Source of the DNA: Alphaproteobacteria bacterium
Lineage (GTDB): Bacteria > Pseudomonadota > Alphaproteobacteria > MPNO01
Reading direction: 5' to 3'
DNA length: 64,000 nt
NCBI GenBank assembly: GCA_965248835.1
Contig: CBDFLJ010000002.1
Span: 480,001-544,000 of the forward strand
Part shown: piece by piece, positions 4,678 through 39,986 of the stretch
Layout of the letters: the number at the start of each line of letters is the position of its first letter
Position numbering within the stretch: the stretch's first letter is position 1
Translations under genes and position numbers: made by a program
Notes under the pieces: generated by a model
The model's input: only the letters and a program-made list of their open reading frames with translations
Told to the model about the DNA's origin: nothing
Database searches by the model: none

Positions 4678-5703
4678 ATGTTCGTCAGGAATTCCTGGTA
4701 CTTGGCGGCGTGGTCGGATGAGCTTCGCGAGATGCCGTTGGGCCTCGTACTACTATGCGACCCGATCGTCCTGTTTAGAAGCTCCGACGGTGCCCCAATC
4801 GCGCTGGAAGACCGGTGCGTGCACCGGCGCGTTCCGCTTTCCATGGGAACTATCTGCGACGATCGCATCCAGTGTACCTATCACGGTTTCGTCTACGATC
4901 GCACGGGCGCGTGCGTCAAGATCCCCGGGCAATCGTCGATCCCGGCGGAAGCGAGGATAAGAAGCTATCCGATCGTCGAGCGCCATGGCTGTATCTTCGT
5001 TTGGATGGGAAACCCGCAAAAGGCGGATGACGCCCTGGTACCCAAATTCGAGACACTCCGGAAGCCCGGCTATGGCGTGACCAAAAAGCATGTCCGGCTA
5101 GAGACCCACTATCAACTCATCATCGACAACCTGTTGGACCTGTCGCACCTTGCCTATCTTCATGCCTCGAGTGTAGGCCAGGCGGAGCTCGCCGAGCTGG
5201 CAAACGTAAATACCGAGATCGAGGGCGATATCGTCAGGGTTTCACGATGGACGCTCGATGTCCCGGCGGTTCGCACGTACCAGCAGTTCGGCCGGTACGA
5301 AACCAACATCGACCGTTGGCAAATCTCGGAGTTTACGCCGCCGTGCTTCTTCATCATCGACAATGGCGCCGCATCGACGGGAACCGGTGCTCCTGAAGGG
5401 AAGACCGGCGAGAACAGGTGGGGCTTCAACGTGTGCCACGGTATCACCCCGGAAACCGACAGGACGACGCATTACTTCTGGGCCCTGTCGCATGAATTCA
5501 GTGATACCGAGGACCGATTGCAGGAGTTCTACCGTCAGAACCATGAGGTTGTAGGGGAAGACATTTCCATCTTTGAGGCGCAACAGAAATACATCGACCT
5601 GGACCCGACGGCCAAGACCGTCGATTTCAAGTACGACGCCGGACCGCTCAAGGCCCGGATGATCATGGACCGTCTGATATCCGAGGAAATGGCCGGGGCG
5701 TGA
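4678..5703 (+). CDS. Rieske non-heme iron oxygenase alpha subunit (VanA/TsaM-like)
   Basis: CVH...CTYH Rieske motif, DNLLDLSHLAYLH iron motif. Confidence 0.92.
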   Translation: MFVRNSWYLAAWSDELREMPLGLVLLCDPIVLFRSSDGAPIALEDRCVHRRVPLSMGTICDDRIQCTYHGFVYDRTGACVKIPGQSSIPAEARIRSYPIVERHGCIFVWMGNPQKADDALVPKFETLRKPGYGVTKKHVRLETHYQLIIDNLLDLSHLAYLHASSVGQAELAELANVNTEIEGDIVRVSRWTLDVPAVRTYQQFGRYETNIDRWQISEFTPPCFFIIDNGAASTGTGAPEGKTGENRWGFNVCHGITPETDRTTHYFWALSHEFSDTEDRLQEFYRQNHEVVGEDISIFEAQQKYIDLDPTAKTVDFKYDAGPLKARMIMDRLISEEMAGA

Positions 5704-5705
5704 GC

Positions 5706-6762
5706 TAGAGCACTTTCAGATCAGACAGAATCATAGGGGATTCCCTTGAGTCGGGGTTTGTGATTCAAGATGCGTGCTGGAGAAGGAGGCCAGCGTGCAT
5801 GACGAAACCTCTTTCGATTGATTTACGGGAACGGCTGATATCGGCAGTTGAAGACGGGATGTCGCGGCGCTGTGCGGCGGAACGCTTTGGGGTCGCGGCG
5901 TCGACAGCGATCAAATGGGTGGATCAATGGCGACGAACGGGCAATGTCCGACCCCAGCCGCAGGGCGGGGATTATCGCTCGCAGCGGATCGAAGCCCATG
6001 CCGAGGAAGTCCTGGCTCTGATCGAGGAAACGCCGGACATCACCCTGGGCGAGATCGCCGTGCATCTGGATGAGACGCATGAGCTGAAGGTCGCTCCAAG
6101 CACCGTCTGGCGTCTGCTTGATCGCCACGGTATGACGTTCAAAAAAAACCGCGCACGCCAGCGAACAACAGCGGCCTGACGTTCTGCGGCGTCGTCGAGC
6201 CTGGTTCGAATCCCAGCCCGATCTGGAGCCGGAGCGGCTTGTTTTCATCGACGAGACCGGAGCATCGACCAAGATGGCTCGGCGTTATGGTCGATCGCCG
6301 CGCGGCGAACGCTGCCGGGCGCCGGTGCCCCATGGGCATTGGAAGACGACCACCTTCGTCGGCGCGCTCAGGCTGGAAGGCATGACCGCGCCCATGATCC
6401 TCGACGGCGCCATGCACGGTGCCGCCTTCCTGGAATACGTGGAACAGGTGCTGGCGCCAACGCTCTCGCCCGGCGATATCGTCATCATGGACAATCTGCC
6501 TGCGCACAAACCTGTCACGGTACGCCTCGCCATCGAAGCCGTGGGCGCTGAACTGCGTTTTCTTCCGCCGTACTCCCCCGACTTCAATCCCATTGAGATG
6601 GCTTTCTCCAAGCTCAAGGCCTTCCTCGAAAAGACTGCGGCCCGAACGGTCGACGATCTTTGGGACGCGATTGCATACGGCATCAAGATATTCACCCCAA
6701 CGGAATGTGAAAACTACTTCGCTGCTGCAGGATATGACCGTGTCTGATCGGAAATTGCTCTA
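5706..6762 (+). mobile_element. IS630-family element 1 (two-ORF type, transposase 5799-6747 joined by -1 slippage)
   Basis: TIRs tagagcactttcagatcagac / gtctgatcggaaattgctcta; [14 protein letters not shown] and [12 protein letters not shown] motifs; A8 run at 6141-6148. Confidence 0.93.
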
Positions 6763-7540
6763 GGCTCTGGACCCATAACCAACAAATGACGATCCGGCGA
6801 TGGTGACGGCGGCGGTGAGGTCAGGGCGAGTTTGTCCGGCTGGCGATCCGGCGCCAGTCAACTTGAGTCGGGCGCAACGTTCGATGTTGCGCAGACGGTC
6901 GCACTGACTTGCCGATCTTGATGCCGTTTGCGGGTGATAGGCCAGGGGATCGCCGGGATGGTGCTGGCGGTCGAGAAGCCGGTCGAGGAGCGATCGCGTC
7001 GTAGGCGGTATCGGCGATGGACACAGATGCCCGGCGGCGCACGTCCGCAGGCGCGCCGCCGGTGCGTCGCCGCATGGACCGCCCCGGCGATCAGCGGAGT
7101 TCGCGCGGCCGTGCTCGTCGGCGGCATCGACAATCGTGCGCCCGCATCGCGGGCGGCCGATGCGCCTGGAAGGGAAGACCGGCTGAGAACAGGTGTGCCT
7201 TGACATTCGAAAGCATCACCGCCGCTGGCGGTCATCAGCCCCGCCAACCGCACGGACGACGCCATGCCATACACCCTTGCGGCCCTGCGGACATGAGCGG
7301 TTGTACAGTGATCCGAGGGCCGATTCCGCAGGCGCATCCCTACCGGCAGAACCCGAGGTTGTAGGGGAAGACATTCCCCGATATCACCCGGCGTCAACAG
7401 AAATACATCGACGCTGGTGTCCGACGGCCAAGACGGCGTCGACTTCCAAGTACGACGCCACCGCTCAAGGCTCTCCGATCCTCAATCCCATGGTTTGGAA
7501 GCTGAATCCGACAGAAATGCGCTTTTATGGGTCCAGATGG
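6763..7540 (-). mobile_element. IS5-family element, inverted and garbled copy of the IS at 9670-10634 (pseudogene or consensus artefact)
   Basis: Reverse complement follows 9670-10634 with many small indels; ends ggctctggacccata and tatgggtccaga. Confidence 0.8.
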
Positions 7541-7541
7541 C

Positions 7542-8613
7542 TAGAGCGTCCTTGGATTGAGTGGAATCAATTGGTGGATACCCATTCATGATGATGTGTG
7601 ATTCCCTCTCACGACATCGATATGTTGTGGGAGGCGGACATGGCATGGCGACGCGGGCAGGCTTATTCGCAGGATCTGCGCGATCGTGTTCTCTCAGCGG
7701 TGGATGGTGGGCTGGGCGTCTATCGGGCAGCCGAGCTGTTCGATGTGAGCGTGTCCTACATCTACAAGGCGCTGGATCGTCGGCGCCGAACGGGCGAGAG
7801 CGGCGCGAACCCGAACCGGGGCCACCGCCGGCGCAAACTGTCGGCGGCGCAGGCGGTGGCACTGGCGGCGCATATCGCCGCACACCCGGACATCACCCTG
7901 GCGCGGTTGCAGGACTGGCTGGCGGCCGAGCACGCGGTGCGGCTGAGTGACGGCGCGATCTGGCAGGCGGTCGACCGGCTCGGCCTGTCGTTCAAAAAAA
8001 ACCCTGCGCGCCGCCGAGCACGATCGGCCCGACATGGCCGCCCGGCGCCGGGCCTGGCGGGCGGCGCAGGGCTGGATCGACCCACGACGCCTGGTGTTCA
8101 TTGATGAAAGCGGGGTGAACACCAAGATGACCCGGCGCTACGGCCGCGCGCCGGTCGGCCGTCGTCTGCACGCCGCGGCCCCCTTCGGTCACTGGAAGAC
8201 CATGACCTTCGTCGCCGCGCTGCGACAGCGCGGGCTGAGCGCGCCCTGGGTGCTTGACGGCGCCATGGACGGCGACGCCTTCAGAACCTACACCGCCGAG
8301 ATCCTCGCCCCGACGCTCACGCCAGGCGACATCGTGGTCATGGACAACCTGCCGGCCCACAAGGTCGCCGGCATCGCCGAGACCATCGCCGGACAACAGG
8401 CCCAGCTCTTCTATCTGCCGCCGTACTCGCCCGACATGAACCCGATCGAACTCGCCTTCTCAAAGCTCAAGACCGCACTCAGGGCCGAGCCGGCACGCAC
8501 CATCGACACGCTCTGGCGGCGCATCGGCACCATCCTTGATACCTTCACCCAAAGCGAATGCGCCAACTACTTCAATGCAACTGGTTATCAACACTCAATA
8601 TGAGAATGCACTA
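7542..8613 (+). mobile_element. IS630-family element 2 (transposase 7640-8603, frameshift at A8)
   Basis: YSQDLRDRV N-terminus, FIDESG, MDNLPAH, LPPYSPDMNPIE; CTAG at both ends. Confidence 0.92.
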
Positions 8614-9668
8614 GAGCATTTTCTGAGCTTTGGGAATCGAGGGGGATTCCCCGGAGGGTGGATATGTGATTCAAGATGCGTGCTGGAGAAGGAGGCCAGC
8701 GTGCATGGCGAAATCTCTTTCCAAGGATCTTCGGGAGCGGCTTGTCGCGGCGGTTGAAGGCGGGATGACACGGCGCTCGGCGGCGCAACGCTTCGGGGTG
8801 GCGGCTTCGACGGCGATCAAATGGGTCGATCGGTGGCGACGGACCGGCGATGTCGGGCCGCGGCCGCGGGGCGGCGATCACCGCTCGCACCGGATCGAGG
8901 CCCATGGCGAGGAGATCCTGGCCCTGATCGAGGAGACGCCGGACATCACCTTGGCGGAGCTGGCCGAGCATCTCGCCGCGGCCCATGGTGTGGTGTTCGC
9001 GCAGAGCACGATCTGGCGCCTGCTCGAGCGTCGCGGGATGACGTTCAAAAAAAACCGCGCACGCCAGCGAGCAGCAGCGCCCTGAGGTTGTGCGACGGCG
9101 CCACGCCTGGTTCGAGACCCAGCCTGATCTGGATCCCGAGCGACTGGTCTTCATCGACGAAACCGGCGCCTCGACCAAAATGGCGCGGCGCTATGGCCGG
9201 GCACGGCGCGGCGAGCGGTGCCGTGCCCCGGTGCCCCATGGTCATTGGAAGACCACCACCTTCGTCGGCGCGCTTCGGCTGCACGGCATGACCGCGCCCA
9301 TGGTGCTCGACGGCGCCATGAACGGCGCGGCCTTCCTGGCCTATGTGCAGCACGTGCTGGTGCCAACACTGGCCCCCGGTGACATCGTCGTGATGGACAA
9401 CTTGCCCGCGCATAAGCCCGTCGCCGTGCGGCATGCCATCGAGGGCGCCGGCGCGGAGATGCGTTTCCTGCCGCCCTACAGCCCCGACTTCAATCCGATC
9501 GAGATGGCTTTCTCCAAGCTCAAGGCCTTCCTCGAAAAGGTCGCCGCAAGAACCGTCGACGACCTCTGGGATGCTATCGCCAATGGCATCGATAGCTTCA
9601 CGCCAACCGAATGCCAAAACGACTTCGCTGCAGCCGGATATGACCGCGAATGATCGAAATATGCTCTA
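8612..9668 (+). mobile_element. IS630-family element 3 (transposase 8705-9653, frameshift at A8), relative of element 1
   Basis: TIRs tagagcattttc / gaaatatgctcta; DDE motifs as in element 1. Confidence 0.93.
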
Positions 9669-9669
9669 G

Positions 9670-10634
9670 GCTCTGGACCCATAAAAGCGCTTTATGATTC
9701 TGTTTGGATCTGATTCAAGCTTCCAAACCGTGAGGATGTCGGAGAGCTTTTGGCTGAGCGATGAGCAGTTTGGACGTCTGGCGCCGTTGTTGCCGACGGA
9801 CACGCGGGGCGTGCCGCGGGTTGACGACCGGCGGGTGATATCTGGGATCATCCATGTTCTTCAATCGGGCTGCCGGTGGAGCTTGAGGATGTCGGAGAGC
9901 CGGCGATGAAGTTTGGACTGGCCCGTTGTTGCCGACGGACACGCGCGGCGTGCCGCGGGTTGACGACCGGCGGGTGTATCGGGGATCATCCATGTTCTTC
10001 AATCGGGCTGCCGGTGGAGGGATGCGCCGGCGGAATACGGCCCTCACAAGACGCTGTACAACCGCTTTGTCCGCTGGGCGCGCAAGGGTGTATGGCAGGG
10101 CGTCTTCGTGCGGTTGGCGGATTCTGGCGGACCGCCGGCGGCGGTGATGCTGGATTCGACCCATGTCAAGGCGCACCGTTCGGCGGCGGGCGGAAAAGGG
10201 GGGCCGAGATCCAGGCGATCGGCCGCTCGCGGGGCGGGCGCACGACCAAGATCCATGCCGCCGTCGACGAGCACGGCCGGGCGCGACGGCTGATCGTCGG
10301 GGCGGGCCATCGCGGCGACGCACCGATGGCGGCGCGCCTGATCGGGGCGATGGCGCCCGGCTTGTGTATCGCCGATACCGCCTACGACAGCGACGCGCTC
10401 CGCGACCTGCTTCTCGACCGGGGCACCATCCCGGTCATCCCCAACAATCCGACCCGCAAACGGCATCACCCGTTCGATCGTCAGGCCTACCGCCTGCGCA
10501 ACGTCATCGAACGTGCCTTCGCCCGGCTCAAGGACTGGCGCCGGATCGCCACCCGATACGACAAACTCGCCCTGACCTACACCGCCGCCGTCACCATCGC
10601 CGCCATCGTCATTTGCTGGTTATGAGTCTGGAGC
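9670..10634 (+). mobile_element. IS5-family element (IS427-like, frameshifted transposase about 9736-10625)
   Basis: TIRs ggctctggacccata / tatgagtctggagcc; DSTHVKAHR, GRSRGG.TTKIH, IADTAYDS, R..IATRYDK motifs; GGAAAAGGGGGG shift site; internal duplication of about 150 bp (9731-9880 / 9884-10019). Confidence 0.88.
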
Positions 10635-10635
10635 C

Positions 10636-11822
10636 TAGTCACCTGGAACTGAAGTAAATTGCACTATATGATGGCCATCGTCGTTGGGCTTTGGAGGTGT
10701 TTGCGATGGTGCGTGGCGTTGGCCGGCCGGTTGCGGCTTTGGTTCTGAGCGATGCAGAACGGTCGTATCTCGAGCGTCAGCTCCGCCGTCGCCAGATCGC
10801 GCGCGCGGTGTCGGACCGCTGCCGCATGATCCTGCGTTGCGCGGCTGGTCTGACCAACAAGGCGGTCGCTGCCGAGCTCGGCGTGCACGAGCACACGGTC
10901 GGCAAGTGGCGCCGCCGCTTCCTGAAGGACCGCATCGACGGACTGTCGGATGAGCCTCGGCCGGGGCGGCCGCGGACCATCGAGGATGATCAAGTGGCAC
11001 AGGTCATTGAACGGACGCTCAACGCGACGCCGGCGGATGCGACCCATTGGTCGCTCCGCTCGATGGCCCGGGAGACCGGGCTGTCGCACACGACGATCCG
11101 GCGCATCTGGACGGCCTTCGGGTTGCAGCCGCACCGCTCGCAGACCTTCAAACTGTCGAGCGATCCGCTGTTCGTCGACAAGGTCCGCGACATCGTCGGG
11201 CTCTATCTGTCGCCGCCGGACCGCGCGCTGGTGCTCTGTGTCGATGAAAAGAGCCAGATCCAGGCCCTCGACCGCGAACAGCCGGTGTTGCCGATGATGC
11301 CGGGCATGGCCGAGCGGCGGACGTACAATTACGTCCGGCACGGGACGACCTCGCTGTTCGCCGCCCTCGATGTCGCCACGGGCTTCGTCATCGGCAAGTG
11401 CTACAGGCGCCACCGGGCCAGGGAGTTCCTCGACTTTCTGAAGCAGATCGACGCCCGCGTCCCCGAGGATCTCGACATCCACATCGTCATGGACAACTAC
11501 GCCACCCACAAGACCGCCGCGATCAGAGCCTGGCTGGCGCGGCGGCCGCACTATCATGTCCACTTCACGCCGACCTCGGCCTCCTGGATCAACCAGGTCG
11601 AGCGCTGGTTCGCCGAATTGACGCGCAAGCAACTGCGACGCGGCGTTCATACCTCGACGAAGCAGCTCGAAGCCGACATCCGCGCCTTCATCGAAAAACA
11701 CAACGAAGACCCCAAGCCCTTCAAATGGACCAAATCAGCCGACGACATCCTCGCCGCCGTCAAACGCTTCTGCCTCCGCGTCGATCAAAACTTATGCCAC
11801 CAACTTTAGATTCGGGTGACTA
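10636..11822 (+). mobile_element. IS630-family element 4 (single-ORF transposase 10706-11809)
   Basis: TIRs tagtcacctggaactgaagt / actttagattcgggtgacta; CVDEKSQIQ, MDNYATHK, PTSASWINQVE motifs. Confidence 0.94.
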
Positions 11823-11893
11823 GTTCGGTTGTAGTCGGCGGAGCAAGAGTGCTCCGCACGAGGCGGCCGGGTAGTCCGGCGGCTACACCATCC

Positions 11894-13555
11894 AGACCGT
11901 GTGAAAACTCTGGGTGGCGGGGGATTCCGTGTGTCTCATGGCGATGTTAGGGTCCGCCATGAGACACATTCCTGGCATTGACCGCTCTCAGGTTCTGCTT
12001 CTGCCGGAAGCAGTGGACGATTACGTGGGCCGGGATAACCCGGTCCGTTTCATCGATGCCTTCGTGGATGGTTTGGACCTGGCGGCCGCTGGTTTCGAGC
12101 GCGCCGCGCCGAAGGCGACAGGTCGTCCCGGCTACGATCCGGCGGACCTGCTGAAGCTCTACATATACGGCTATCTCAATCGGGTACGTTCGAGCCGCCG
12201 GCTGGAGGCTGAGAGCAAGCGTAATCTCGAAGTGATCTGGCTGTTGCGGCGTTTGTCGCCGGACTTCAAGACGATCGCCGATTTCCGGAGGATCAATCGG
12301 GCGGCCTTCCGACAGGTGTTTCGGGAGTTCGTGAGGCTATGCCGCGAACTGGAGCTGTTCGGTCGCGAGCTGGTGGCGGTTGACGGTACACGGATCAAGG
12401 CAGTGAACAGCCGGAAGCGGAACTTCACCAAAGCGAAGCTGGAGAAGGCGTTGGCCGAGAGCGACGAGAGGTTGTCGCGTTATCTCGACCGGCTCGACGA
12501 GGCCGACGGGCAAGACGAGGGCGGCGCCGGCGGCGGCGAGGTGGAGAATATCCAGGAGAAGATCGCTGCGATCCAAGGGCGGCGTGAGCGGTTTGAGGAA
12601 CATCGAGACGCACTGGCTGCGAGTGGCGAGGGCCAGCTCTCTTTGACGGATCCGGACAGCCGGGCGATGTACGCCGAGACCCGGGTCGGTGTCGGCTACA
12701 ACATTCAGATCGCCGTGGACGCCAAGCACAAACTGATCGCCGAGCAGCAGGTCCATAACAAGGTCAGCGATCTCGGTCTATTGGCCGAGACGGCGGTGGT
12801 GGCCCGTCGGAACCTGGCCGTCGATCGGATCGACGCGGTCGCCGACGCGGGCTACTTCAAGATCGAGGATATCGAGGCCTGCGAGAATGCCGGCGTCGTG
12901 CCGCATGTGCCCAAGCCCCAGCGCGGATCCACGGTGAGCCAGGGGCTCTTTCCCAAGGAACGCTTCCGCTATGACGGCGGCGAGGACATTTACATCTGCC
13001 CCGACGGCCAACGCCTGGCGCTACACAGCAAGCGCAAGCGCCGCGATCTCATCTTCGCCAGTTACGCCAATCGCGCCGCGTGCAAGGAGTGCCAACTCAA
13101 GTCGAAGTGTACGAAAAGCGCCTTCCGTCGGGTCCTGCGCTATGTCGACGAAGCGATCCTGGAGCGCATGGCAGAACGATTGGCGGCCCGCCCGGAGCTG
13201 CTCGATGCGCGCCGTGAAAGCGTCGAGCATCCCTTCGGCTCAATCAAACAATGGATGGGCCAGGGTGCCTTCCTGACCCGGCGGCTGGAGAACGTGCGCG
13301 GCGAGTTCAGCATCACGGCGCTGGCTTACAACATCCGCCGCGCGATCTCTCTGGTAGGTGTTCCCGCCTTGATCGCCGCCGCGAGGGCATGAGACAGGAA
13401 TCAGGCCAAAATCGAGCGCCGCACATCGATCCATGGAGGCCTGGAGCCCCTTCCACAGGGCTACCGGCGCCAAACCGCCAGATTACGTGGGATCGCCGCA
13501 AATCATGGTTACCTAAACCTCCATCCCCGCCCCCGCCCGAGTTTTCACACGGTCT
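11894..13555 (+). mobile_element. IS1182-family element (transposase 11959-13392)
   Basis: TIR agaccgtgtgaaaactc; GRPGYDP, SSRRLE, PDFKTIADFR, VDGTRIKA, ADAGY, RRESVEHPFG motifs. Confidence 0.93.
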
Positions 13556-13759
13556 GGATGGTGTAGCCGCCGGTGAACCCGTGCATGTCCCCAAGGCGTT
13601 CGAAGATAAGCTGCGCCGATCCATCCCGGCGCCGTGAAGTCCTGCCGCGAGATCGGAATCGAGGTGCCGGAGCGCTTGCCGCGCAGGCGGCCGTTTCCGA
13701 ATGGGTGCAACAGTGGACCGGGGGAGAGGGCATCATTCCCCCGGCGATGAGGAGTCGCC

Positions 13760-14842
13760 ATGGGCGATCGCCGGATCGAAGACGCGCGCCGGGCCACCAA
13801 CCCGGTGTTCAACGACCGCAAGCTCAAGCTCGGGACGTTCGGCACCAATGTCTCCAACGCATGCTCGATGACCACCATCGAAGGGCGCTATGAGCCGACC
13901 TGGCCCAACACCCTTGCGATCGCCCGACTGGCCGATGCGATGGAGTTCGAGGCCATGGTGCCGGTCGCCCGCTGGAAGGGCTTCGGCGGCGCGACCGACT
14001 TCAACGGCCGCAACTTCGAGGTCTACACCTGGGCGGCCGGGCTCGGCGCCTCGACCCGGCACGCCAGCATCATGGCGACGTCCCACGTGCCGACCGTCCA
14101 TCCCATCATGGCGGCCAAGCAGGCGACGACGATCGATCACATCACCGGCGGGCGGTTCTCGCTGAACATCGTCTGCGGCTGGTACCGGGACGAGCTCGAC
14201 ATGTTCGGTGCCCGCGCGCTCGAGCACGACGAGGCTTACGACTACGCCGCCGAGTGGCTCGATGTGATGCTGCGGCTGTGGACCGAAGGCGGCGCGTTCG
14301 ACCACGCCGGCAAGTATTTCACCATCGACCGAGCCGCGCATGCACCCAAGCCGATCCAGGCGCCGTGGCCCGCGCTGATGAACGCCGGCAAGTCGGTCAA
14401 GGGCCAGCACTTCGCGGCCAAGTACTGCGACCTCGCTTTCGTGGTCTATCAGAGCTACGACCTCGACGACATCGCCCGCATGGTGGAGGACTACCGCAGC
14501 CTTGCGCGCAACGAGTACGGCCGCGAGATCCAGGTCTGGAGCTACGCCTACGTGGTCCAGCGCGAGACCGAGGCCGAGGCGCGGGACTACCTGAACCACT
14601 ACGTCCTGGAGAAGGGCGATCGCGAGGCGTGCACGAACCTCCTGACCAGCGTCGGCGTGCCGATGGACAAGATGCCGGGCGACACGTTGGAAGAAGCGAT
14701 GTTTCACTTCATGGCGGGATGGCGCGGCTATACCGCGCAGCCGGCGGACTATCAGTCCTATGCCGATTTCGGGCGCGATGGCCGCGAACGGTGCGAATCC
14801 TACCGCGCCCCGCCCCGACCGATGCCGACGGTCCAGCCATGA
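13760..14842 (+). pseudogene. LLM-class flavin-dependent monooxygenase, C-terminus replaced by phage sequence from about 14727
   Basis: PVARWKGFG and HPIMAAKQATTIDHITGGRFSLNIVCGW motifs; from 14727 the DNA matches the phage gene at 37463 onward. Confidence 0.85.
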
Positions 14843-15111
14843 TCGATCCGGCACGCGGCTACTGGATCGCCGTCCACGACCGCGGCGGCCTGGTGTCCTG
14901 CTTCCATGCGACCTACGGCGCCTTGATGGGATCGCTCGCGGCGGCCGGCGCCTGCCGGGCGCGCTCCGACCTGATCGAGGTGATCGAGCGCCGCGCCGAT
15001 GGCGGCACGACGCGCCACGGGATCGGCGATGTGGACGCCTGGTGCCGCGAGCACGCGCCCGGCGAAGGCCGGCGCCCGGCGCCCGGCGCAGGGCAGGGGG
15101 CGGTGAGGTGA
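14839..15111 (+). CDS. Phage hypothetical protein, paralog of 37581-37865
   Basis: MIDPARGYWIAVHDRG start identical in both elements. Confidence 0.7.
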   Translation: MIDPARGYWIAVHDRGGLVSCFHATYGALMGSLAAAGACRARSDLIEVIERRADGGTTRHGIGDVDAWCREHAPGEGRRPAPGAGQGAVR

Positions 15112-15620
15112 CCGTCATCCACCCTCTGAAATTCCGCTGGGACGGGGCGGCGATGATCCCCCTGGTCGAGTCGGTCGCCGCGCGCCAATACGCGCTCGGT
15201 GCGACCTACCGCCTGGCGCCGTGGGAAGACCGCGCGCCGGCCGCTCACAACCACTACTTCGCCGCGATCCACGAGGGCTGGCGCAATCTCCCGGAGCGCT
15301 TCGTCGGACGTTGGCCGACTGCGGAGCACCTGCGGAGGGATCTGCTGATCCAGGTCGGCTATCGCGACGAGCGGTCGATCGTCTGCGCGTCGAAAGCCGA
15401 AGCGGTGCGGCTCGCCGGCTTCATCGCGCCGATGGACCGCTACGCGGTTATCGAGGCGCGCAATGCCGTCGTCACCGTCTACACCGCCAAGAGCCAGTCC
15501 ATGCGGGCGATGGGCAAGCAGGAATTCGCGGACAGCAAGCGCGAGGTGCTTGAACTTCTGTCCGAGATCATCGGCGTGTCGCAAGACGACCTGGAAGCAG
15601 ATGCAAGGATCTCGGCATGA
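15108..15620 (+). CDS. Phage protein, NinB/DUF1367-like (tentative), paralog of 37867-38379
   Basis: HNHYFAAI...W.NLPE and TAKSQS.RAMGK.EF..SKR.VL; GTG start overlapping upstream stop. Confidence 0.7.
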   Translation: MTVIHPLKFRWDGAAMIPLVESVAARQYALGATYRLAPWEDRAPAAHNHYFAAIHEGWRNLPERFVGRWPTAEHLRRDLLIQVGYRDERSIVCASKAEAVRLAGFIAPMDRYAVIEARNAVVTVYTAKSQSMRAMGKQEFADSKREVLELLSEIIGVSQDDLEADARISA

Positions 15621-15681
15621 ACCACCGCCCGTGGTAGAATGAAAGGGATTCGGTGACACCGATCGAACGAGGAGAATGATC

Positions 15682-16008
15682 ATGAGATTTGCCATGGTTT
15701 TCGCCGTGCTTGTGTTCATCGCTCAAGGCGCGCAAGCGCAACAAGCGTGCGACGTCTGGAACCAGGACACCTGCGATGACGATCTCCCCACCGCGAGCAA
15801 GTGCCTGAGTGCATTCGAGGACAGTTCGGCACGGCCAACATGCGTCGCGCCGTCCGCCAAGGTCGAGAGCGACTACAGGTGCACGGTCAGGGCCGGCTGT
15901 CGGAAAAGGAATTTCCAGGACTGGAAATGGTCCAAGATCACCGTCCGACACACGCGCGTCCCCGCCCTGCACAACTGTGACGGCACTCTCAAACTGGGAC
16001 TTTGCTGA
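15682..16008 (+). CDS. Secreted 8-Cys small protein 1, cyanovirin-N/CVNH-repeat-like (tentative)
   Basis: GAGGAG RBS, 19-aa Sec signal ending AQA, 8 Cys, C-terminal NCDGTLK. Confidence 0.85.
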   Translation: MRFAMVFAVLVFIAQGAQAQQACDVWNQDTCDDDLPTASKCLSAFEDSSARPTCVAPSAKVESDYRCTVRAGCRKRNFQDWKWSKITVRHTRVPALHNCDGTLKLGLC

Positions 16009-16013
16009 TCAAC

Positions 16014-16128
16014 CGCGGGCGCCAAGGCGAGGAAACCCGGCATGATGAACGACGGCGGACCGGCTTTTCCCAGCCCCGGATCGATGAGTCCCGACGGCAT
16101 CGGCCCTGATTGACCCGAAGACGGCATG
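16014..16128 (+). repeat. 115-bp inter-cassette direct repeat, copy 1
   Basis: Matches 16923-17037 with 3 mismatches; 16009-16061 is identical to 16518-16570. Confidence 0.95.
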
Positions 16129-16190
16129 AACGACCGCCCATGGTAGAATGGAAGGGATTCGGTGATACCGATCGAACGAGGAGAATCATC

Positions 16191-16517
16191 ATGAGATTTG
16201 CCTTGGTTTTCGCCGCGCTTGTGTTCATCGCTCAAGGCGCGCCAGCGCAAGGAGCGTGCGACCTCCCGGGCGTGGGCTCCTGCAATGAGGGAGCCCTCAC
16301 CTGGAGCAGATGCATGCGTTCGTTTGCGGATAGCCACGCAGCGCGAACATGCCTCGGGCCCTCCGTCGAGATCGTTAACAACTGGAACTGCAAATTCCGG
16401 GCTAGCTGTCCGAGAGATAATTTGGACGTCTGGAAATGGTCCGAGGTCACCGTGCGTCACCAGCGCGTCCGCACTATAAGAAATTGCGACGGCACTCTCA
16501 AAGAGTGGTCTTGCTGA
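16191..16517 (+). CDS. Secreted 8-Cys small protein 2, CVNH-repeat-like (tentative)
   Basis: Same RBS, signal peptide and Cys spacing as protein 1. Confidence 0.85.
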   Translation: MRFALVFAALVFIAQGAPAQGACDLPGVGSCNEGALTWSRCMRSFADSHAARTCLGPSVEIVNNWNCKFRASCPRDNLDVWKWSEVTVRHQRVRTIRNCDGTLKEWSC

Positions 16518-16570
16518 TCAACCGCGGGCGCCAAGGCGAGGAAACCCGGCATGATGAACGACGGCGGACC
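16518..16570 (+). repeat. Truncated 53-bp copy of the inter-cassette repeat
   Basis: Identical to 16009-16061. Confidence 0.95.
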
Positions 16571-16587
16571 AACCCAGGAGAATCGAA

Positions 16588-16917
16588 ATGAGATTTGCCA
16601 TCATCCTTGCGGCCCTTCTGTTCGTCGCTCAAGGCGCGCAAGCGGAAAACCCGTGTGATGTCCCGCGCCCAAGCAGCCTTTGCGACGGTGACAAGATCGG
16701 CGTCGTCATGTGCCTCATGGCTTTCGAAGACAGTCCGGCTCGGCACGACTGTTCCAGCCACACTGCCCGGGTCATCGGCAAGGACAAATGCAAGGTGAGG
16801 GCCACTTGCCAGAAAAGTGACGGGTATGCGTGGAATACGTCAGCAATCACTGTTCACCTCCAGCGCGTCGGCCATTTGAGGAACTGCGACGGCACGCTGA
16901 AAGACGGGGCCTGCTAA
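16588..16917 (+). CDS. Secreted 8-Cys small protein 3, CVNH-repeat-like (tentative)
   Basis: AGGAG RBS, signal ending AQA, VRATCQKSDGYAWNTSAI...NCDGTLK. Confidence 0.85.
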   Translation: MRFAIILAALLFVAQGAQAENPCDVPRPSSLCDGDKIGVVMCLMAFEDSPARHDCSSHTARVIGKDKCKVRATCQKSDGYAWNTSAITVHLQRVGHLRNCDGTLKDGAC

Positions 16918-16922
16918 TGAGG

Positions 16923-17037
16923 CGCGGGCGCCAAGGCGAGGAAACGCGGCATGATAAACGACGGCGGACCGGCTTTTCCCAGCCCCGGATCGATGAGTCC
17001 CGACGGCATCGGCCGTGATTGACCCGAAGACGGCATG
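16923..17037 (+). repeat. 115-bp inter-cassette direct repeat, copy 3
   Basis: Matches 16014-16128 with 3 mismatches. Confidence 0.95.
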
Positions 17038-17184
17038 CGCTTGCGCGGCTGGCTCGCGGGGCGGGTGTTGAGCGCCATCGTGTCCGGCGGCGCAAAACTG
17101 GATGAATGTCTTGTCTTTGCCCGCACCGCCTGCAGGGCGGCCGATGCGATGGTGGCGGCGTGGGACGAGGAACCGTCCGAATGA
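16951..17184 (+). pseudogene. Small phage protein relic (NDGGPAFP...GMxLRDxFA...ADAM family) with internal TGA
   Basis: Translates MINDGGPAFPSPGSMSPDGIGRD*PEDGMRLRGWLAG...AADAMVAAW. Confidence 0.65.
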
Positions 17185-17513
17185 CCCGCCGCATCCGGTT
17201 CCATCCCCGCGTCCATGCCGCGAGCGTGCGGCGTCAAGCCGGGTCCTGCGCCCGCGGCTGCGGCGAGGCGCCGGGCGACGACCCGCGCGAGATCCGGTAC
17301 GACCGTTTGATCCCGCTCCAGCCGGGCGGGGAGGACATTCCGGAGAACCTGCCGGCGCTGCGCCTCGAGCATCGCTTCCGGAACAACGCCCGCGAGGCGA
17401 AGGCCCGCGCCAGGGTGAAGCGCATCCGGCAACGCGAAGGGCTCATGAAGCGGCCCCTGCCGCGGCACGACAAGGCGCCGGCGGCGATTTTGCAAGGGCC
17501 GAGCGATGGATGA
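17181..17513 (+). pseudogene. Degenerate HNH endonuclease-like phage protein
   Basis: C..GC...YDRLIPLQPGGEDIPENL resembles DHxxPxxxGGxDxxxNL with the His replaced. Confidence 0.55.
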
Positions 17514-17685
17514 CGCGCCCGCACCCCTTATCGCCGCCGACACCCCGCTGCGCGATCTCCGCGCGCAGCAAGCCCAGCTCGCGTTACGCGCCGAAATATT
17601 CCCCGACGCGCGGACGGCCTGGGAAGCCGTCACGGCGCTGATCGCGGTCCGGCAAGCGCTGGCGGCGAGGGGAGGGGAGTCGTGA
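17506..17685 (+). CDS. Phage hypothetical protein, paralog of 38376-38594
   Basis: AADTPLRDLR...AVTALI shared with element B. Confidence 0.65.
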   Translation: MDDAPAPLIAADTPLRDLRAQQAQLALRAEIFPDARTAWEAVTALIAVRQALAARGGES

Positions 17686-17737
17686 TGCGTGGGGCCGTCA
17701 TCCCGGCTCCGGTCACCTCGCGGCGAGAGCCGGAGCG

Positions 17738-18016
17738 GTGACCGCGACCGCAGCCGTTCGGGAAAACCTGCCGCACTGGCCGCGGCTGTTGAGCCGCGAC
17801 CTGGCGGCGGCCTATGTCGGGCTGTCGGTGAACGCGCTCGAACAGCGGATCGGCGCGCCGTGGCCGGCGCCGATCCGCGTCGGCCGGCGCAAGCTCTACG
17901 ACCGCGACGCGCTCGACCGGGCGGTCGACGCCTTGACCCGCGCCGAGGCAAGCGCACCGGCGGAAAAGATCCGCCGCGAGCGCCGCCATGCAGGGGGTCG
18001 CGCTGCGCCACGTTAA
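17738..18016 (+). CDS. Excisionase-like HTH protein
   Basis: WPRLLSRDLAAAYVGLS...GRRKLYDR..LD; overlaps integrase start. Confidence 0.8.
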   Translation: MTATAAVRENLPHWPRLLSRDLAAAYVGLSVNALEQRIGAPWPAPIRVGRRKLYDRDALDRAVDALTRAEASAPAEKIRRERRHAGGRAAPR

Positions 18017-19007
18017 GCGGTACTGCGTCGCCGGCAAGGTCTACTGGTATCACCGGGAGACCGGGGAGCGGCTGTCCGAGGACGCGGACGACCGCGCCGC
18101 CCGCGTGCTGCACATCAACGCCACGCTCGACGGCTGGCGCGGCGCCGCGGTCCCCGGCTCGATCGGCGAGCTGATCGGCCGCTACAAGGCGAGCCCGGAT
18201 TTCACGCGCCTGGCGCCGTCGACCCGGCGCGGCTATGGAACCTATCTCGGCCTGCTCGAACGGTGTTTCGCCGACGATCCGGTCAGCGGCATCGACCGGG
18301 CCTGGCTCTACAAGGTGCGCGACAGCATGGCCGATGCGCCGCGCGCCGCCGATCTGCTGCTGTCGATCCTGTCGATCCTGCTCGGCTTCGCGGTCGATCG
18401 CGGCTGGCGTGCGGACAACCCGGCGGTGCGGATCAGGAAGCTGCGCGGCGGCAAGAGCTACGAGCCCTGGCCGGAGGCCGCGATCGCGCGGTTCCGCGCC
18501 GGCGCCGACAAGCGCATGGTGTGGGCGATGGAGCTGGCGCTCTATACCGGTCAGCGCCAATCGGACGTGCTGGCGATGCAATGGCATCACATCGAGGACG
18601 GGCTGATCTCGGTCGCCCAGCAAAAGACCGGCGAGCGGCTGGCGATCCCGATCCACCGCGACCTGGCATCGGTCCTCGATGCGATCCCGCGCGGCCACCT
18701 GTCGATCGTCCACACCGCGCGCGGCGCGCCCTACACGCCGTCGGGCTTCCGGGCCAGTTTTCGCAAGACGCTCGCCAGGCTCGGCCTCGCCGGGCTCCAG
18801 TTCCACGGGCTGCGCCACACCGCCGGTCAACTGCTCGCCGAGGCCGGCGCGACCGACCGGGAGCTGATGGCGATCCTCGGCCACCGGACGGCCGCGATGG
18901 TGACCAGATACACCCGCAAGGCCGACCAGGAACGGCTCGCCCGGTCGGCGATCGTCAAGCTCGAGACCAGAACGGGCGTGTCCAAGGCGCCCGATCGTGC
19001 GGTCTGA
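17988..19007 (+). CDS. int: Tyrosine recombinase / phage integrase (element A)
   Basis: TGQR, QKTG, HGLRH, LGH, TRY catalytic residues present. Confidence 0.93.
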   Translation: MQGVALRHVKRYCVAGKVYWYHRETGERLSEDADDRAARVLHINATLDGWRGAAVPGSIGELIGRYKASPDFTRLAPSTRRGYGTYLGLLERCFADDPVSGIDRAWLYKVRDSMADAPRAADLLLSILSILLGFAVDRGWRADNPAVRIRKLRGGKSYEPWPEAAIARFRAGADKRMVWAMELALYTGQRQSDVLAMQWHHIEDGLISVAQQKTGERLAIPIHRDLASVLDAIPRGHLSIVHTARGAPYTPSGFRASFRKTLARLGLAGLQFHGLRHTAGQLLAEAGATDRELMAILGHRTAAMVTRYTRKADQERLARSAIVKLETRTGVSKAPDRAV

Positions 19008-19054
19008 GCCGGTATTCGGCCGGCTGCTGCGCGAAAGGGACGGCTCGCGGCCGA

Positions 19055-19489
19055 CTACCGGTCGTGAGGCGGGTTTCGGGATGCCTGTATCTTGCGGATG
19101 CGTTCCGGCCATGTGGACCGGATATAGGCCAGGATGTCCCAGATCTCGTCGTCGGTCAGGACATCGCCGAGGCCCGGCATGCCGCTCTTGAACCGCGTGA
19201 TGCCCCGCGCCTCCATCAGGGCCTTGCCGCCGAGCTCGGTGTAGTCGAACAGAAGCCGGTTGTCGTGATGCCAGGTGTGGCCGGTTGCATCGTGCGGCGG
19301 CGCCGGCAGAACCCCGTCCTTTCCGATCTGCCGCCAGCTGGGCTGTCCTTCGAGCTTGTCGCCGTGACACGAGGCGCAGTGTTCCTTGTAGAGCACCTGC
19401 CCGTTCGCGAGGTCGCGGTCGTCGAGCTCGTCGCCCGCCAGCGCGGCGCCCGGTGACAGTAATGCGAGGGCCAGCAGCAAACGCTTCAT
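19055..19489 (-). CDS. Cytochrome c, copper-cluster associated type
   Basis: Signal peptide, CASCH haem motif, PAPPHDATGHTWHH, distal GMP. Confidence 0.88.
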   Translation of the reverse strand: MKRLLLALALLSPGAALAGDELDDRDLANGQVLYKEHCASCHGDKLEGQPSWRQIGKDGVLPAPPHDATGHTWHHDNRLLFDYTELGGKALMEARGITRFKSGMPGLGDVLTDDEIWDILAYIRSTWPERIRKIQASRNPPHDR

Positions 19490-19953
19490 GCGACCTCGAC
19501 CCATGTCTTCATGCCCGACGCCTGGTGGGCGAGGGTATGGCAGTGCAGCAGCCATTTGCCGGGGTTGTCGAACCCGCCGCGCATCTCTCCCGTCCTGGAC
19601 AGGCGCCAATCGTCCAGAACGACCGTGATGTCGCGGTCGATTCGGGGCGGGTTGCGTTCCTCGACGATCAACGGGCCGTACAGCCCCTTGGCCACCTGCT
19701 CCCAGGACCGGTGGTGGGCGTGGTACCAGTCGGTTCCGGCGTGGGGCACGACGAAGGCGTAGTCGAAGGTCTCGCCGGGTTCGACGGCCGCCTGCGTAAG
19801 GCCCGGCACACCGTCCATCGCGTTGTCGAGGTGGATGCCGTGCCAGTGGATGGCGGAGCCCTGGTCGATTCCGTTCTCGAACGCAACCGATATCCGGCCG
19901 CCCTGGCGGACGCGGATTTCGGGGCCTGGAGTCGACCCGTTGAACCCCAGCAT
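19486..19953 (-). pseudogene. Multicopper oxidase remnant with large internal deletion
   Basis: HWHG and WYHAH of domain 1 joined directly to C-terminal NPGKWLLHCH..AHQ..GM. Confidence 0.8.
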
Positions 19954-20005
19954 GCGTATAGGCCGTCGCCCTCGGGCAGTAAGCGCGCGGTGACGAGCTG
20001 CTCAC

Positions 20006-20222
20006 ATGCCGGAATATCGAACCATCGATGAACGCAAGGCCGTCAGAACCACAAACGCCATCGAACGACGCTTCCGCGAAGTCCGACGCAGAACAAGGCC
20101 CATGGACGTCTTCCAGGATCGCACATCCATGGACCGTATCTTCTTCGCCGTCTTCACAGACGAAAATTCAAACCAGGGAGTCTCAAGCCTCTTCTCCCTG
20201 ACACACAACTCTTGATGTTACC
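20006..20222 (+). mobile_element. IS256-family 3'-end remnant
   Basis: RTTNAIERRFREVRRRTR motif; end acacacaactcttgatgttacc. Confidence 0.75.
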
Positions 20223-20295
20223 ATTGGTCGTCTGGGAAATGCGGTCTAAGGGGCCTTCAAGCTATACCCCCGACCGCCACAACCTTTTGATTTAA

Positions 20296-20341
20296 TTGGT
20301 GGGCGCACACGGACTCGAACCGTGGACCCGCTGATTAAGAG
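20296..20341 (-). repeat. att core repeat, 46-bp copy of the tRNA-Lys 3' end
   Basis: Identical to 39910-39955; diverges just past the anticodon loop. Confidence 0.95.
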
Positions 20342-23746: not shown

Positions 23747-25975
23747 ATGAATTCGAACAATTGCGTCGTGGCGTTGGCTTCGATCCTCGGAATGTTGTTC
23801 TTGTCCGCGTGCGGTGGCGGTGGTAGCGGACCGGTTTCAGCGCTTGCCCAATGCGTTGACCCCGTTATAACAATCGAAGATCCCGAAAACATGTCCAGCG
23901 ATGACGAGCAGGTATTCAAGCAAACTCTCCGTGCGGCGATAAGCAATGTTTGTAAGTGGTGGGGGCCGACCTATACCGGGCCTTTCACAATTAATATCGA
24001 GGACAGCACGGGACCAGCGATGGCTTTGATACCCGCTTGGCAAGGCAATCGCGGGACCATGCTGTTTCGGACGGCAACGACGGTGGCAGGCCGATCGGCA
24101 ATCACCCACGAAGTTATTCATGTGTTCGCCCCAAACGCGAACCGGTTTCTGGCGGAGGGGTTTGCCACTTACGGACATCAGCATTTGGGGGGGCAAGCGG
24201 CGTTTCCCAACGATGGCCAGGACCTGCATGATGCCGCATCGGAATTTGTGGATCAGACGAATCTCCACCTTCTCGATGCAATTGCAACGCCCAGCCGCTT
24301 GGAATCCACCCTTTTGACTGAGCGACAGAACTATATTGCGGCCGGTTCTTTCATGCGGTTTCTCATTGAAACCCACGGCATGGAGAAATTTCGCGAACTC
24401 TACGCACTGACCCCGTTGGTACCCCATGTAAGAAACAGCGGGGCGGATGATCGGTGGGTCGGCATCTATGGCGTCAGTCGCAGCACGTTGGTCGTTGCTT
24501 GGCAGGCGAAATTAGCGAGTATCGGGCAGGGGCAGGCGAAAAGCGTCAGCCGGGTCATCGAGACGGTGGTTCCGGACCGGGTCATCGAGACGGTGGTTCC
24601 GGAGTTGACGCGGGCGATGATGGCGAGCACGTCGGGCGCGGTGACCGGGCGCATCGAGGCTGTCGCCTCGGGCAACGTGCCGGCCGTGACGGTCAACATT
24701 GCCGGTCAATCGACGCTTTATCATGCCCTGAAATCTAACGCCCAGGGAATGCAGGACGGCACGCTCGATCCGGCCCAGCTGCTGGGTGGCTCGTCGTTCG
24801 CGCTTTCGCTCAATGCGGTGGAAGGCGGCAAGGCCGGCGGTGTCAGCGACATCGGGGTTTGGGGCAGCGGTGACTACCGCAATCTCTCGGGCGGCGATAG
24901 CGGCGCGGTGGCATGGGACGGCGACCTGTGGAGCGCCCATCTCGGCATCGATACTCGGTTGCGCGAGAACCTGTTGGCCGGGCTATCGGCGTCGTTCTTC
25001 AAGGGTTCGTTCGACTATACCGACAGGACCACCGGCACCGCGGCCAGCGGCGCGCTTGAGAGCCGGATGACAAGCCTCAACCCTTATGTGAGGTGGTCCG
25101 CGCGGAAGGCCCTGGATCTGTGGGCGACGCTCGGCTACGGCCGGGGTGAGCTTGAGATCAACGACAATGCGGCGGCCCCGGTGTCGAGCGATCTGAGCCA
25201 GTGGTCGGCAGCGGTTGGCGCGAGCGGCACGCTGCTCACCAGTGACGATTGGATCGCCGGCGGCACGACGAGACTCAAGCTCAAGGGCGAAGGCTCGCTG
25301 GCAGGGGTGAACGTCGAGGGCAACGGTGCCGAGATCAGCGAGCTGACAGTGGATGCGCGGCAGCTGCGGCTAAGCCTCGAGGGCAGCCACGCACATAAAC
25401 TCGCCGCGGGCGGCGCGCTGACGCCGGCGATCGAGCTTGGGCTACGCCATGACGGCGGCGACGGCGAGACCGGCGCGGGCATCGAACTCGGTGGCAGCCT
25501 ACGATACAACGACCCGGCGAGCGGTCTGACCGTCGAGAGCCACGGCCGTACCTTGCTTGCCCATGGCGGCAACTACGAGGAATGGGGCATCGGTGGGCTG
25601 ATCCGGCTCGATCCGGGCGCCAAGGGCCGCGGCATGTCCCTGAGCCTGGTTCCGACCTGGGGTGAGACGCAAAGCGGTGTTCAGCGGTTGTGGAACGACG
25701 GCATGACCGACAGGGCTGCCGCCAATGACAACAAGGCGCAAGGTCGCCTCGAGACGCACCTTGGCTATGGCTTCGGCGTGTTCGGCGGCCGGGGCTTGCT
25801 GACACCGTACAGCGGTCTTTCGCTGGCTGGCGAGGGCGCACGGCGGTACAGCCTCGGCAGCCGTCTGGAGGTCGGGTCGTCGCTCAACCTCGGCCTGGAG
25901 GGCGAGCGTCGTGAGCCGGCCAACGACACCGCGGCCGACCACGGCGTCATGCTGCGGGGACAGCTGCGGTTCTGA
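23747..25975 (+). CDS. Lipoprotein with HExxH metallopeptidase-like passenger and autotransporter-type beta-barrel
   Basis: Lipobox LSAC, THEVIH...AEGFA, barrel strands (GLRHDGGDGETGAGIELGG), terminal QLRF. Confidence 0.8.
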   Translation: MNSNNCVVALASILGMLFLSACGGGGSGPVSALAQCVDPVITIEDPENMSSDDEQVFKQTLRAAISNVCKWWGPTYTGPFTINIEDSTGPAMALIPAWQGNRGTMLFRTATTVAGRSAITHEVIHVFAPNANRFLAEGFATYGHQHLGGQAAFPNDGQDLHDAASEFVDQTNLHLLDAIATPSRLESTLLTERQNYIAAGSFMRFLIETHGMEKFRELYALTPLVPHVRNSGADDRWVGIYGVSRSTLVVAWQAKLASIGQGQAKSVSRVIETVVPDRVIETVVPELTRAMMASTSGAVTGRIEAVASGNVPAVTVNIAGQSTLYHALKSNAQGMQDGTLDPAQLLGGSSFALSLNAVEGGKAGGVSDIGVWGSGDYRNLSGGDSGAVAWDGDLWSAHLGIDTRLRENLLAGLSASFFKGSFDYTDRTTGTAASGALESRMTSLNPYVRWSARKALDLWATLGYGRGELEINDNAAAPVSSDLSQWSAAVGASGTLLTSDDWIAGGTTRLKLKGEGSLAGVNVEGNGAEISELTVDARQLRLSLEGSHAHKLAAGGALTPAIELGLRHDGGDGETGAGIELGGSLRYNDPASGLTVESHGRTLLAHGGNYEEWGIGGLIRLDPGAKGRGMSLSLVPTWGETQSGVQRLWNDGMTDRAAANDNKAQGRLETHLGYGFGVFGGRGLLTPYSGLSLAGEGARRYSLGSRLEVGSSLNLGLEGERREPANDTAADHGVMLRGQLRF

Positions 25976-34453: not shown

Positions 34454-34857
34454 CAGGCGTCTCCGATGAAGCGATAGGTGCCCTCGATCCGCCAGCCGTG
34501 GGCCGAGAGATCGACGGGAATCTGGAACACGACGCCAATATCGCGGCCGGCATGGAGCACGCCGCCGCCGTCGACGGCGAGCCACAGGCCGACATGGACC
34601 GGATGGCGGGACTGGCGCATCAACACGGCGTCGCCCTCGCGAGCGTGTTCCACCGCCTGCCAACGTCGCCGTTCCGGATGATCGCGGAAGCCCGCGAGCA
34701 CGGCACGGAGGTCCGCGGCATCGACCGGGATCTCCGGGACCTCGATGGCGAAGTGTTCGCGCCAGCACCAGCGCGCGAGACCCCAGCAGTCGAACGCGTC
34801 CGGTCCGCGTCCGCCGGCAACCCAGGGGCGGCCGATCAGGTGTTCGGCCCAGTGCAT
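34453..34857 (-). CDS. NlpC/P60 tail assembly protein
   Basis: GRGPDAFDCWGL, HVGLW, VLHA. Confidence 0.9.
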   Translation of the reverse strand: MHWAEHLIGRPWVAGGRGPDAFDCWGLARWCWREHFAIEVPEIPVDAADLRAVLAGFRDHPERRRWQAVEHAREGDAVLMRQSRHPVHVGLWLAVDGGGVLHAGRDIGVVFQIPVDLSAHGWRIEGTYRFIGDA

Positions 34858-35484: not shown

Positions 35485-35491
35485 CCCCGGC

Positions 35492-35923: not shown

Positions 35924-35935
35924 GGCTCACCTCCG

Positions 35936-39910: not shown

Positions 39911-39986
<76 letters not shown>

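Follow-up and report, generated by a model that had tools for sequence, protein, structure and literature searches.

A tandem array of three small genes was found within a decayed prophage of an alphaproteobacterium, in the 64,000-nucleotide stretch of DNA analysed here (the window). The reading we prefer, with confidence and doubt about evenly balanced, is that these genes form a moron-type cassette of Sec-exported, single-domain proteins with the cyanovirin-N (CV-N) fold, which serve as variable binders at the interface with an animal host and are probably lectins. Each of the three proteins would be locked by disulfides, with its C-terminal hairpin packed on its own three-stranded sheet, and would offer at most one binding site per chain; an added N-terminal helix and extra disulfides would stabilise the domain. 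The proteins would act outside the cell, facing an animal (probably sponge) host, with host or self glycans as the most plausible class of ligand. Recombination through flanks that are nearly identical may have lined up divergent alleles one after another, and this would widen the repertoire.

The three genes and their products

The trio proteins each contain eight cysteines, spaced by 7/7/8, 9, 12, 12, 5, 25 and 8 residues (Table 1). Their N-termini begin with basic residues, continue into a hydrophobic stretch (mean Kyte-Doolittle value ~3.0) and carry an A-x-A motif at residues 17-19, as judged by a rule-of-thumb check; no membrane anchor or lipobox was found in them. We infer that the proteins are exported. 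The initial annotation had described three secreted 8-Cys proteins of 108-109 aa with this cysteine pattern, and the reading frames, the spacing and the signal-peptide-like N-termini (by the same rule of thumb) agree with it. Pairwise identity within the trio is 41-51%, with 39 invariant columns. In four runs of a single sample, independent contigs carry the genes with zero to five differences; the sample is possibly the one from which the genome came, and the match therefore verifies the sequence and not its distribution.

Table 1. Features of the array and its surroundings (window coordinates)
Feature	Position	Strand	Remarks
Gene 1 (P0001)	15682-16008	+	108 aa; signal peptide 1-19, short 2-Cys arm, predicted 6-Cys single-repeat CV-N-fold module
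Gene 2 (P0002)	16191-16517	+	108 aa, paralogue
Gene 3 (P0003)	16588-16917	+	109 aa, paralogue; modelled as helix, three-stranded sheet and own hairpin
Spacer repeat 1	16009-16128	+	33 nt plus first 87 nt of downstream phage ORF, including in-frame TGA; 114/120 identical to 16918-17037
Shorter spacer copy	16518-16575	+	54/58 identical to spacer 1; runs into gene 3 ribosome-binding site
509-nt repeat unit (family D6)	15614-16122	+	6-nt word shared at 15614 and 16123
Left flank, phage gene phrog_15346 (NinB-related)	15108-15620	+	prophage B counterpart 37867-38379
Right flank, small phage-type ORF	16951-17184	+	in-frame TGA at 17020 breaks ORF; array inserted at ORF start
Second phage-type ORF downstream of array	17181-17513		part of stretch absent from prophage B
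Excisionase-like gene and tyrosine integrase of remnant	17738-19007	+
46-nt att core	20296-20341	.	identical to 3' part of tRNA-Lys gene (39910-39955)
Promoter-like site	15612-15640	+	weak -35, 17 nt, TG-extended -10 TAGAAT; left edge of insert; consensus match only

Prophage setting

Prophage A, which carries the array, is a remnant of ~5.6 kb (14727-20341), and no virion genes were found among its scanned ORFs. A luciferase-like monooxygenase gene (13760-14842) is fused at ~14727 to a phage ORF of which the C-terminal part remains. Similarity to a second prophage in the window (prophage B) begins at this same fusion point, which identifies element A as a remnant; the fusion marks a deletion that took its left part. 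The stretch 15621-17505 is missing from the corresponding junction of prophage B (38376-38379). It was on the grounds of this junction that the initial annotation had called the three genes an accessory insert. The trio is indeed absent from prophage B, but the missing stretch holds the two ORFs at 16951-17184 and 17181-17513 as well as the array. The first of these ORFs is presumably of phage type; no PHROG match was found for its 3' part. A tighter empty site was seen in three of the four runs (one contig each), where the end of the phrog_15346 gene meets the beginning of the small ORF directly. The flanks are separated there by 24 different letters; as its short side is only 26 nt, the site probably belongs to a related phage and counts as modest evidence.

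The GC content of the array is 59.6%, against 69-71% in its flanks. Three promoter-like sites were found where 0.5 would be expected, and a near copy of the site at the left edge precedes gene 2. The array thus has the features of a prophage moron: it is inserted between phage genes, is absent from a related phage, and has its own promoter, the last as a consensus match only. A search of 19 family genomes and of genomes G441-G443 found no copy of the left flanking gene, phrog_15346.

The att cores in the window reflect tandem integrations. A third identical tRNA-Lys att core is present in the source genome (G000) at C2:755174, 235 kb off, and suggests a rearrangement or another element. Between the integrase gene and the att site of prophage A (19055-20031) there are a cytochrome c gene and a shortened ORF resembling a multicopper oxidase (by eye); a similar stretch is found at G000:C2:732-734 kb. 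Just left of the remnant (5700-13600), insertion sequences are densely clustered, and three related copies of a transposase are among them. Prophage B has lambda-like tail genes (gpJ, NlpC/P60, DUF1833) and an RCC1-repeat protein gene at 32156-36757 (-); no head genes were found among its scanned ORFs. Its region also contains HicA/HicB (~31.2-31.9 kb) and two genes for secreted cargo: an autotransporter with an unannotated HExxH passenger, recognised by eye (23747-25975, +), and a subtilase S8 protein (27301-29463, -).

Predicted cyanovirin-N fold

The AlphaFold2 model of the gene 3 product (89 sequences; pLDDT 86.5) consists of a helix, a helical turn, three strands, a turn and a hairpin. 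A wide structure search (48,161 chains) placed four CVNH structures on top (Z 6.2-6.9; next 4.2). In a second comparison (VIA-align), the top 12 were all CVNH (Z 6.1-7.5, 14-32% identity) and the next, unrelated structure scored 4.8. The model superposes on 5k79 with Z 7.5 (rmsd 2.6 over 53 residues) and on 2rdk with Z 7.3 (rmsd 1.9 over 52). Porphobilinogen deaminase was considered as a structural relative and rejected (Z no higher than 4.8; 59-66 residues at ~3.6-4.0 A, or rmsd above 5 A).

Z values below 8 could by themselves reflect a common arrangement of elements; since independent sequence signals agree, the link to CV-N holds. A phmmer comparison of gene 3 with 5k79 gave E 6.8e-5. Alignment with single-repeat Pfam-CVNH matches by hhalign gave 78% (P 1.8e-5) with profile A5 and 43% with the smaller profile A3, and CVNH clusters of the ESM Atlas were matched at 0.85-0.89. 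The family profiles had no match among PDB sequences. The Pfam CVNH model (PF08881) matched none of the three trio proteins, none of 23 family cores and none of the 148 best family matches (E <= 0.01), nor anything in the source genome; weak Pfam matches (defensin propeptide, CLIP, SPARK) were all below the cut-off.

The models and the weak, concordant sequence homology place the trio in the CV-N fold superfamily, with a predicted three-stranded antiparallel sheet packed on a beta-hairpin through helical turns (all Z below 8); the marks of the CVNH family itself, a Pfam score and two swapped repeats, were not found. The initial annotation had seen by eye a resemblance to one cyanovirin-N repeat, and had named HMMER against Pfam CVNH and AlphaFold with a structure search as checks. 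The resemblance is borne out by the CVNH structures at the top of the searches, by phmmer and by hhalign. HMMER returned no CVNH match above the cut-off. The structural check was divided: CVNH led by Z, always below 8, but Foldseek found no match for the model at E <= 0.001, its best viral rows being giant-virus CVNH proteins.

One cluster in the ESM Atlas (70 aa, 79 members, 45% viral, Uroviricota) scored 0.85-0.89 with both queries. It is possibly a phage-borne CVNH-like family, and is given here as a lead only.

Family architectures

A profile of the 23 cores retrieved 559 clusters at 50% identity (E <= 0.001), of which 144 remained at 1e-10. Two of the matches, P0047 and P0126, were repetitive false positives and were dropped before counting and tree building, so 559 is an upper figure. 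The best 150 matches, less two of our own queries and these two, left 146 proteins in which repeats were counted: 116 have one module, 18 two, nine three, and one each four, five and six. Calx-beta domains were found in 16 of 148 best matches. In relatives, the module lies near the N-terminus of frames of ~810-830 codons which also encode Calx-beta domains and an autotransporter-like C-terminus (the barrel was recognised by eye). Such stalk-tip fusions would support display at the cell surface. The family has no name; it occurs as stand-alone modules, behind an extra domain, as tandem repeats, and at the tip of Calx-beta autotransporter-like proteins.

The source genome contains eight further loci: five intact 12-Cys genes that encode an additional N-terminal domain, two frameshifted copies and one remnant. 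The 12-Cys proteins P0004-P0008 end in the predicted CV-N-fold module; the window trio is without their N-terminal domain. One locus (L011:1520-10138; G000:C2:2119519-2128140) encodes TolC, a PAS-HlyD fusion, an ABC ATPase and MacB, followed by three 12-Cys genes. Two of these genes are near-identical in the N-domain (96%) and only 47% identical in the module, which points to module swapping.

A predicted closed domain in each chain

In CV-N, each sheet packs on the hairpin of the other repeat (PMC11952781; PMC6359319). Residues 30-89 of the model align to CV-N residues 2-102 (composite domain A), but only to 1-40 in domain-swapped crystal forms. The hinge is 12 residues long in 87 of 89 rows, four longer than in 5k79, so that a single repeat can fold back and strand exchange is not needed. 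A natural two-repeat relative, P0022 (pLDDT 87.7, pTM 0.64), matches CVNH through one repeat of ~55 residues and not through ~100. CVNH proteins have two tandem repeats of ~50 residues that swap hairpins to form two domains; the trio proteins have one repeat per chain, and each chain is predicted to close, as a monomer, into one complete CV-N-like domain.

The initial annotation had proposed half-lectins that need to pair, by hairpin swap, into homo- or heterodimers with combinatorial specificities. CV-N owes its own structure to strand exchange between its repeats and is capable of domain swapping (PMC11952781), the three genes are adjacent, and the disulfide pairing proposed below leaves no bond tying hairpin to sheet. 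The longer hinge and the closed one-chain model, equivalent to a complete domain A, oppose this proposal, as does P0022, which was modelled unswapped even though its two repeats are covalently joined. One repeat is the rule (116 of 146), the repeat number is odd in 10 of the 12 proteins with three or more repeats (three or five in these 10), and single modules cap the autotransporter-like proteins. Pairing half-domains are highly improbable on this evidence, and the closed single domain is the form that we carry forward.

The disulfide pairs of the gene 3 product would be 23-32, 42-68, 55-74 and 100-109. The cysteines of the first pair are gained together and those of the last are lost together in three proteins; 55-74 corresponds to CV-N 8-22, and 42-68 follows by elimination.

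Putative ligands

The CV-N sugar sites comprise residues 1-7, 22-26 and 92-95, and 41-44, 50-56 and 74-78 (PMC11952781); E41, N42 and T57, in domain B, are named as binding residues elsewhere (PMC9725752). The equivalent of T57, just before the first CV-N cysteine, is Thr or Ser in 80 of 89 rows and Asp in gene 3. The equivalent of N42, the hairpin Asn, is kept in 88 of 89 rows. The equivalent of E41 and the loop after C74 (the 23-26 loop) vary across rows. As the sugar-site residues are only partly kept, high-mannose binding cannot be assumed, and another glycan may be the ligand; the trio would most plausibly be lectins for host or self glycans.

The same fold and export could instead serve a protein ligand, the modules being inhibitors or decoys of host defence proteins in an arms race that involves the entire surface. 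Variable positions lie all over the surface and are not focused on the sugar site (entropy 1.49 vs 1.73): changes fall in helix, strands and hinge, many alter charge, and the partly conserved sugar site varies no more than other positions. Relatives of the trio adjoin Sel1 and MORN repeat genes, and a fungal CVNH protein is reported to bind and suppress plant peroxidases (PMC11064801). However, at the CV-N site the Thr/Ser and the Asn-x-Asp/Asn-Gly motif rank with the most conserved non-Cys positions, which may be for folding alone, and the multi-repeat and stalk-tip forms fit multivalent binding. We regard a protein ligand as unlikely, and glycan binding as the better account.

Relatives, distribution and the phage connection

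The quick tree was built from 230 modules and 74 columns, and many of its forks are unresolved. It places the trio and a gene pair from genome G441 in one clade of 11 rows (support 95), apart from the 12-Cys genes of the host. Recent capture of the trio from those host genes was considered and rejected because of this separation, within the limits of a quick tree of 74 columns. The 12-Cys modules of cyanobacteria and alphaproteobacteria are mixed in this tree (support 87), a hint of exchange between phyla.

The G441 pair (L085:7195-15213), the nearest to the trio, lies in tandem between the small and large terminase genes, in a locus with a 12-Cys gene, two Sel1 genes, two MORN genes and Fic genes. 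This locus is a second prophage remnant loaded with secreted cargo. Both kinds of repeat gene in it, Sel1 and MORN, are present as duplicates interspersed with the two Cys-rich genes.

The 12-Cys form has 20 named loci: eight in Aphanocapsa feldmannii 277cV, six in four Alphaproteobacteria MAGs, four in a Rhodobacterales MAG and two in a Ca. Binatia MAG. Strain 277cV, with nine family matches in its genome, is a symbiont of the sponge Petrosia ficiformis (PMC6506613). Searches for the module, which differ in profile, threshold and depth (only 12 candidates per genome were scored among the 400), were positive for 8 of 40 relatives and for 1 of 400 genomes sampled phylum-wide; kin are not independent. 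These figures and the 277cV loci would support a link with symbionts, and from the relatives we infer a sponge host for the source genome. The family extends beyond symbionts, with one member named from Stenotrophomonas maltophilia. A single copy is present in the unrelated genome G099. In a Ca. Binatia MAG (L087; G445:C1:722000-741900) there are six family copies which form their own clade, each alone among housekeeping genes; the neighbours include radA, dinB and hemE- and hemY-like genes (by eye).

No match to the trio was found in PHROGs, in IMG/VR or, with tblastn, in GenBank phages. Pattern scans for the trio in IMG/VR, GTDB contigs and JGI metagenomes, and a scan of IMG/VR with the 12-Cys alignment, gave no match either; like the tblastn search, they are insensitive. 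A word-index search with gene 3 returned only itself, and a subfamily profile returned nine proteins, none of them named. The main texts of open articles that were surveyed, including work on the cyanobacterial symbiont, do not describe the family; supplementary protein tables of sponge-symbiont papers could list it as hypothetical proteins. The earlier suggestion that the family is undescribed therefore agrees with the lack of any Pfam, PHROG or literature match, the last within the main texts of open articles. The array itself was called phage-borne in the initial annotation, and it does lie in phage DNA; the family as a whole is mostly chromosomal, with the eight further loci in the host genome and no match in phage collections, so this label stands for the trio but not for the family.

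The same facts bear on superinfection exclusion, in which the cassette would shield the lysogen by masking surface-glycan receptors or by blocking entry in the periplasm. An early-gene moron slot with its own promoter-like site would suit this role, the closest clade occurs twice in prophage remnants, and the phage-rich 70-aa Atlas cluster (0.85-0.89) is a further lead only. Conflict with phages likewise drives dN/dS above 1. Against exclusion, the copies are for the most part chromosomal, joined to Calx-beta stalks or placed beside a MacB/TolC/HlyD exporter; the trio proteins have neither anchor nor lipobox, and the phage collections named above hold no match. Exclusion is improbable, and we retain a role at the animal-host interface as the preferred reading.

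Assembly of the array

The flanks of the genes are far more alike than the genes. Genes 1 and 2 share 59 of 64 positions in their upstream regions, and the silent sites of the mature coding regions have diverged much further (dS 0.37, 1.08 and 1.42). Old alleles in young flanks suggest either that recombination stacked cassettes of related phages or that the flanks were homogenised later. The shared 6-nt words bounding the 509-nt unit are likely to be the crossover points, a mechanism read from the repeats. Mutagenesis by a diversity-generating retroelement was considered and rejected, as changes fall on all four bases in all three pairs, with no adenine bias.

Selection

Nei-Gojobori counts were made for seven pairs; p values are uncorrected for multiple tests, and GC3 bias can lower dS. 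Two of the seven pairs are significant; neither lies in the window, and one of the two involves a frameshifted copy. The G441 pair has a dN/dS of 3.63 (CI 1.5-17; Fisher p 0.0012). The host pair at C2:850-851 kb differs by 37.5 non-synonymous vs 0.5 synonymous changes, which divide into 22.5 vs 0.5 in the N-domain (p 0.0016) and 15 vs 0 in the module (p 0.021). Values for the G441 vs G000 12-Cys module and for the host pair at C2:2125-2126 kb are 4.6 (p 0.08) and 0.71, respectively. Within the window, gene 1 vs gene 2 gives 1.19 (CI 0.64-2.35, p 0.34), compatible with 1; the pairs with gene 3 give 0.50 and 0.41, with CI below 1, as expected under purifying selection. Neighbouring phage genes, used as a control, range from 0.29 to 0.76. 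By these counts, recent duplicates elsewhere are under diversifying selection and the window trio stays below significance.

The trio might also be a decaying relic, its genes having drifted into loss of function after the prophage broke. The prophage is truncated, the downstream ORF holds a stop, three host copies are frameshifted or partial, and the ratio for genes 1 and 2 is compatible with 1. Yet the three frames, all 24 cysteines, the signal peptides and the ribosome-binding sites are intact at ~50% divergence, and the gene 3 pairs are under purifying selection. A relic is most improbable, and a functional cassette remains our preferred account.

Comparison with known systems

The CVNH lectins (PF08881; PDB 5k79, 2rdk, 2z21, 5c8o, 2jzj, 2l2f) share with the trio model the helical turn, three-stranded sheet, turn and hairpin, and the model superposes on CV-N domain A at ~1.8-2.8 A over ~50 residues. 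The equivalent of the CV-N Cys8-Cys22 bridge (C55, C74) is kept in the trio family, and the hairpin Asn and the pre-Cys Thr/Ser are conserved. The trio differs in having one repeat where the lectins have two, a hinge longer by four residues, at most one predicted site per chain, an extra 14-residue helix and 6-8 cysteines vs four, and in lying below Pfam detection. Alphaproteobacterial single-repeat CVNH-like domains (L030-L034) have the same 12-residue hinge and align gap-free across it (hhalign 78%); they differ in that their four cysteines are placed elsewhere, the N-terminal helix is missing and the C-terminal domain resembles beta/gamma-crystallin by eye. At E <= 1e-5, the family profile missed them. 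Since such single-repeat entries are already in databases, the one-repeat state itself is not unique.

Two other systems resemble the proposed role. ANKp of Ankyphages (10.1101/608950) is likewise a phage-carried gene of sponge-associated bacteria with a proposed action on the animal host; it differs in being made of ankyrin repeats and tested in cell assays, whereas the trio is a multi-allele array of disulfide-rich proteins of predicted CV-N fold. The fungal effector SsCVNH (PMC11064801; compared by description) is also a secreted CVNH-fold protein acting on a eukaryotic host; it differs in being fungal and annotated as CVNH, and in binding plant peroxidases. By analogy, the trio likely works like a small secreted CV-N-type binder, in a setting like that of ANKp.

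Biological significance

A wider reading, possible but offered tentatively, is that sponge symbionts hold a hypervariable host-recognition repertoire of single-domain cyanovirin-fold lectins from an undescribed family that crosses phyla, shuttled by phages as flank-stacked cassettes and mounted on autotransporters, in an unswapped form from which two-repeat CV-N could derive. If true, this repertoire would be a large natural library of small glycan binders.

Few symbiont proteins without repeats are candidates for host recognition in sponges. The family is invisible to Pfam, is multicopy in symbionts of three phyla and shows the signs of an arms race in recent duplicates, and thus supplies small, easily made proteins for tests. 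A natural monomeric CV-N domain, as predicted here, would bear on the origin of the two-repeat swapped lectin, and the several hundred variants may hold new glycan specificities.
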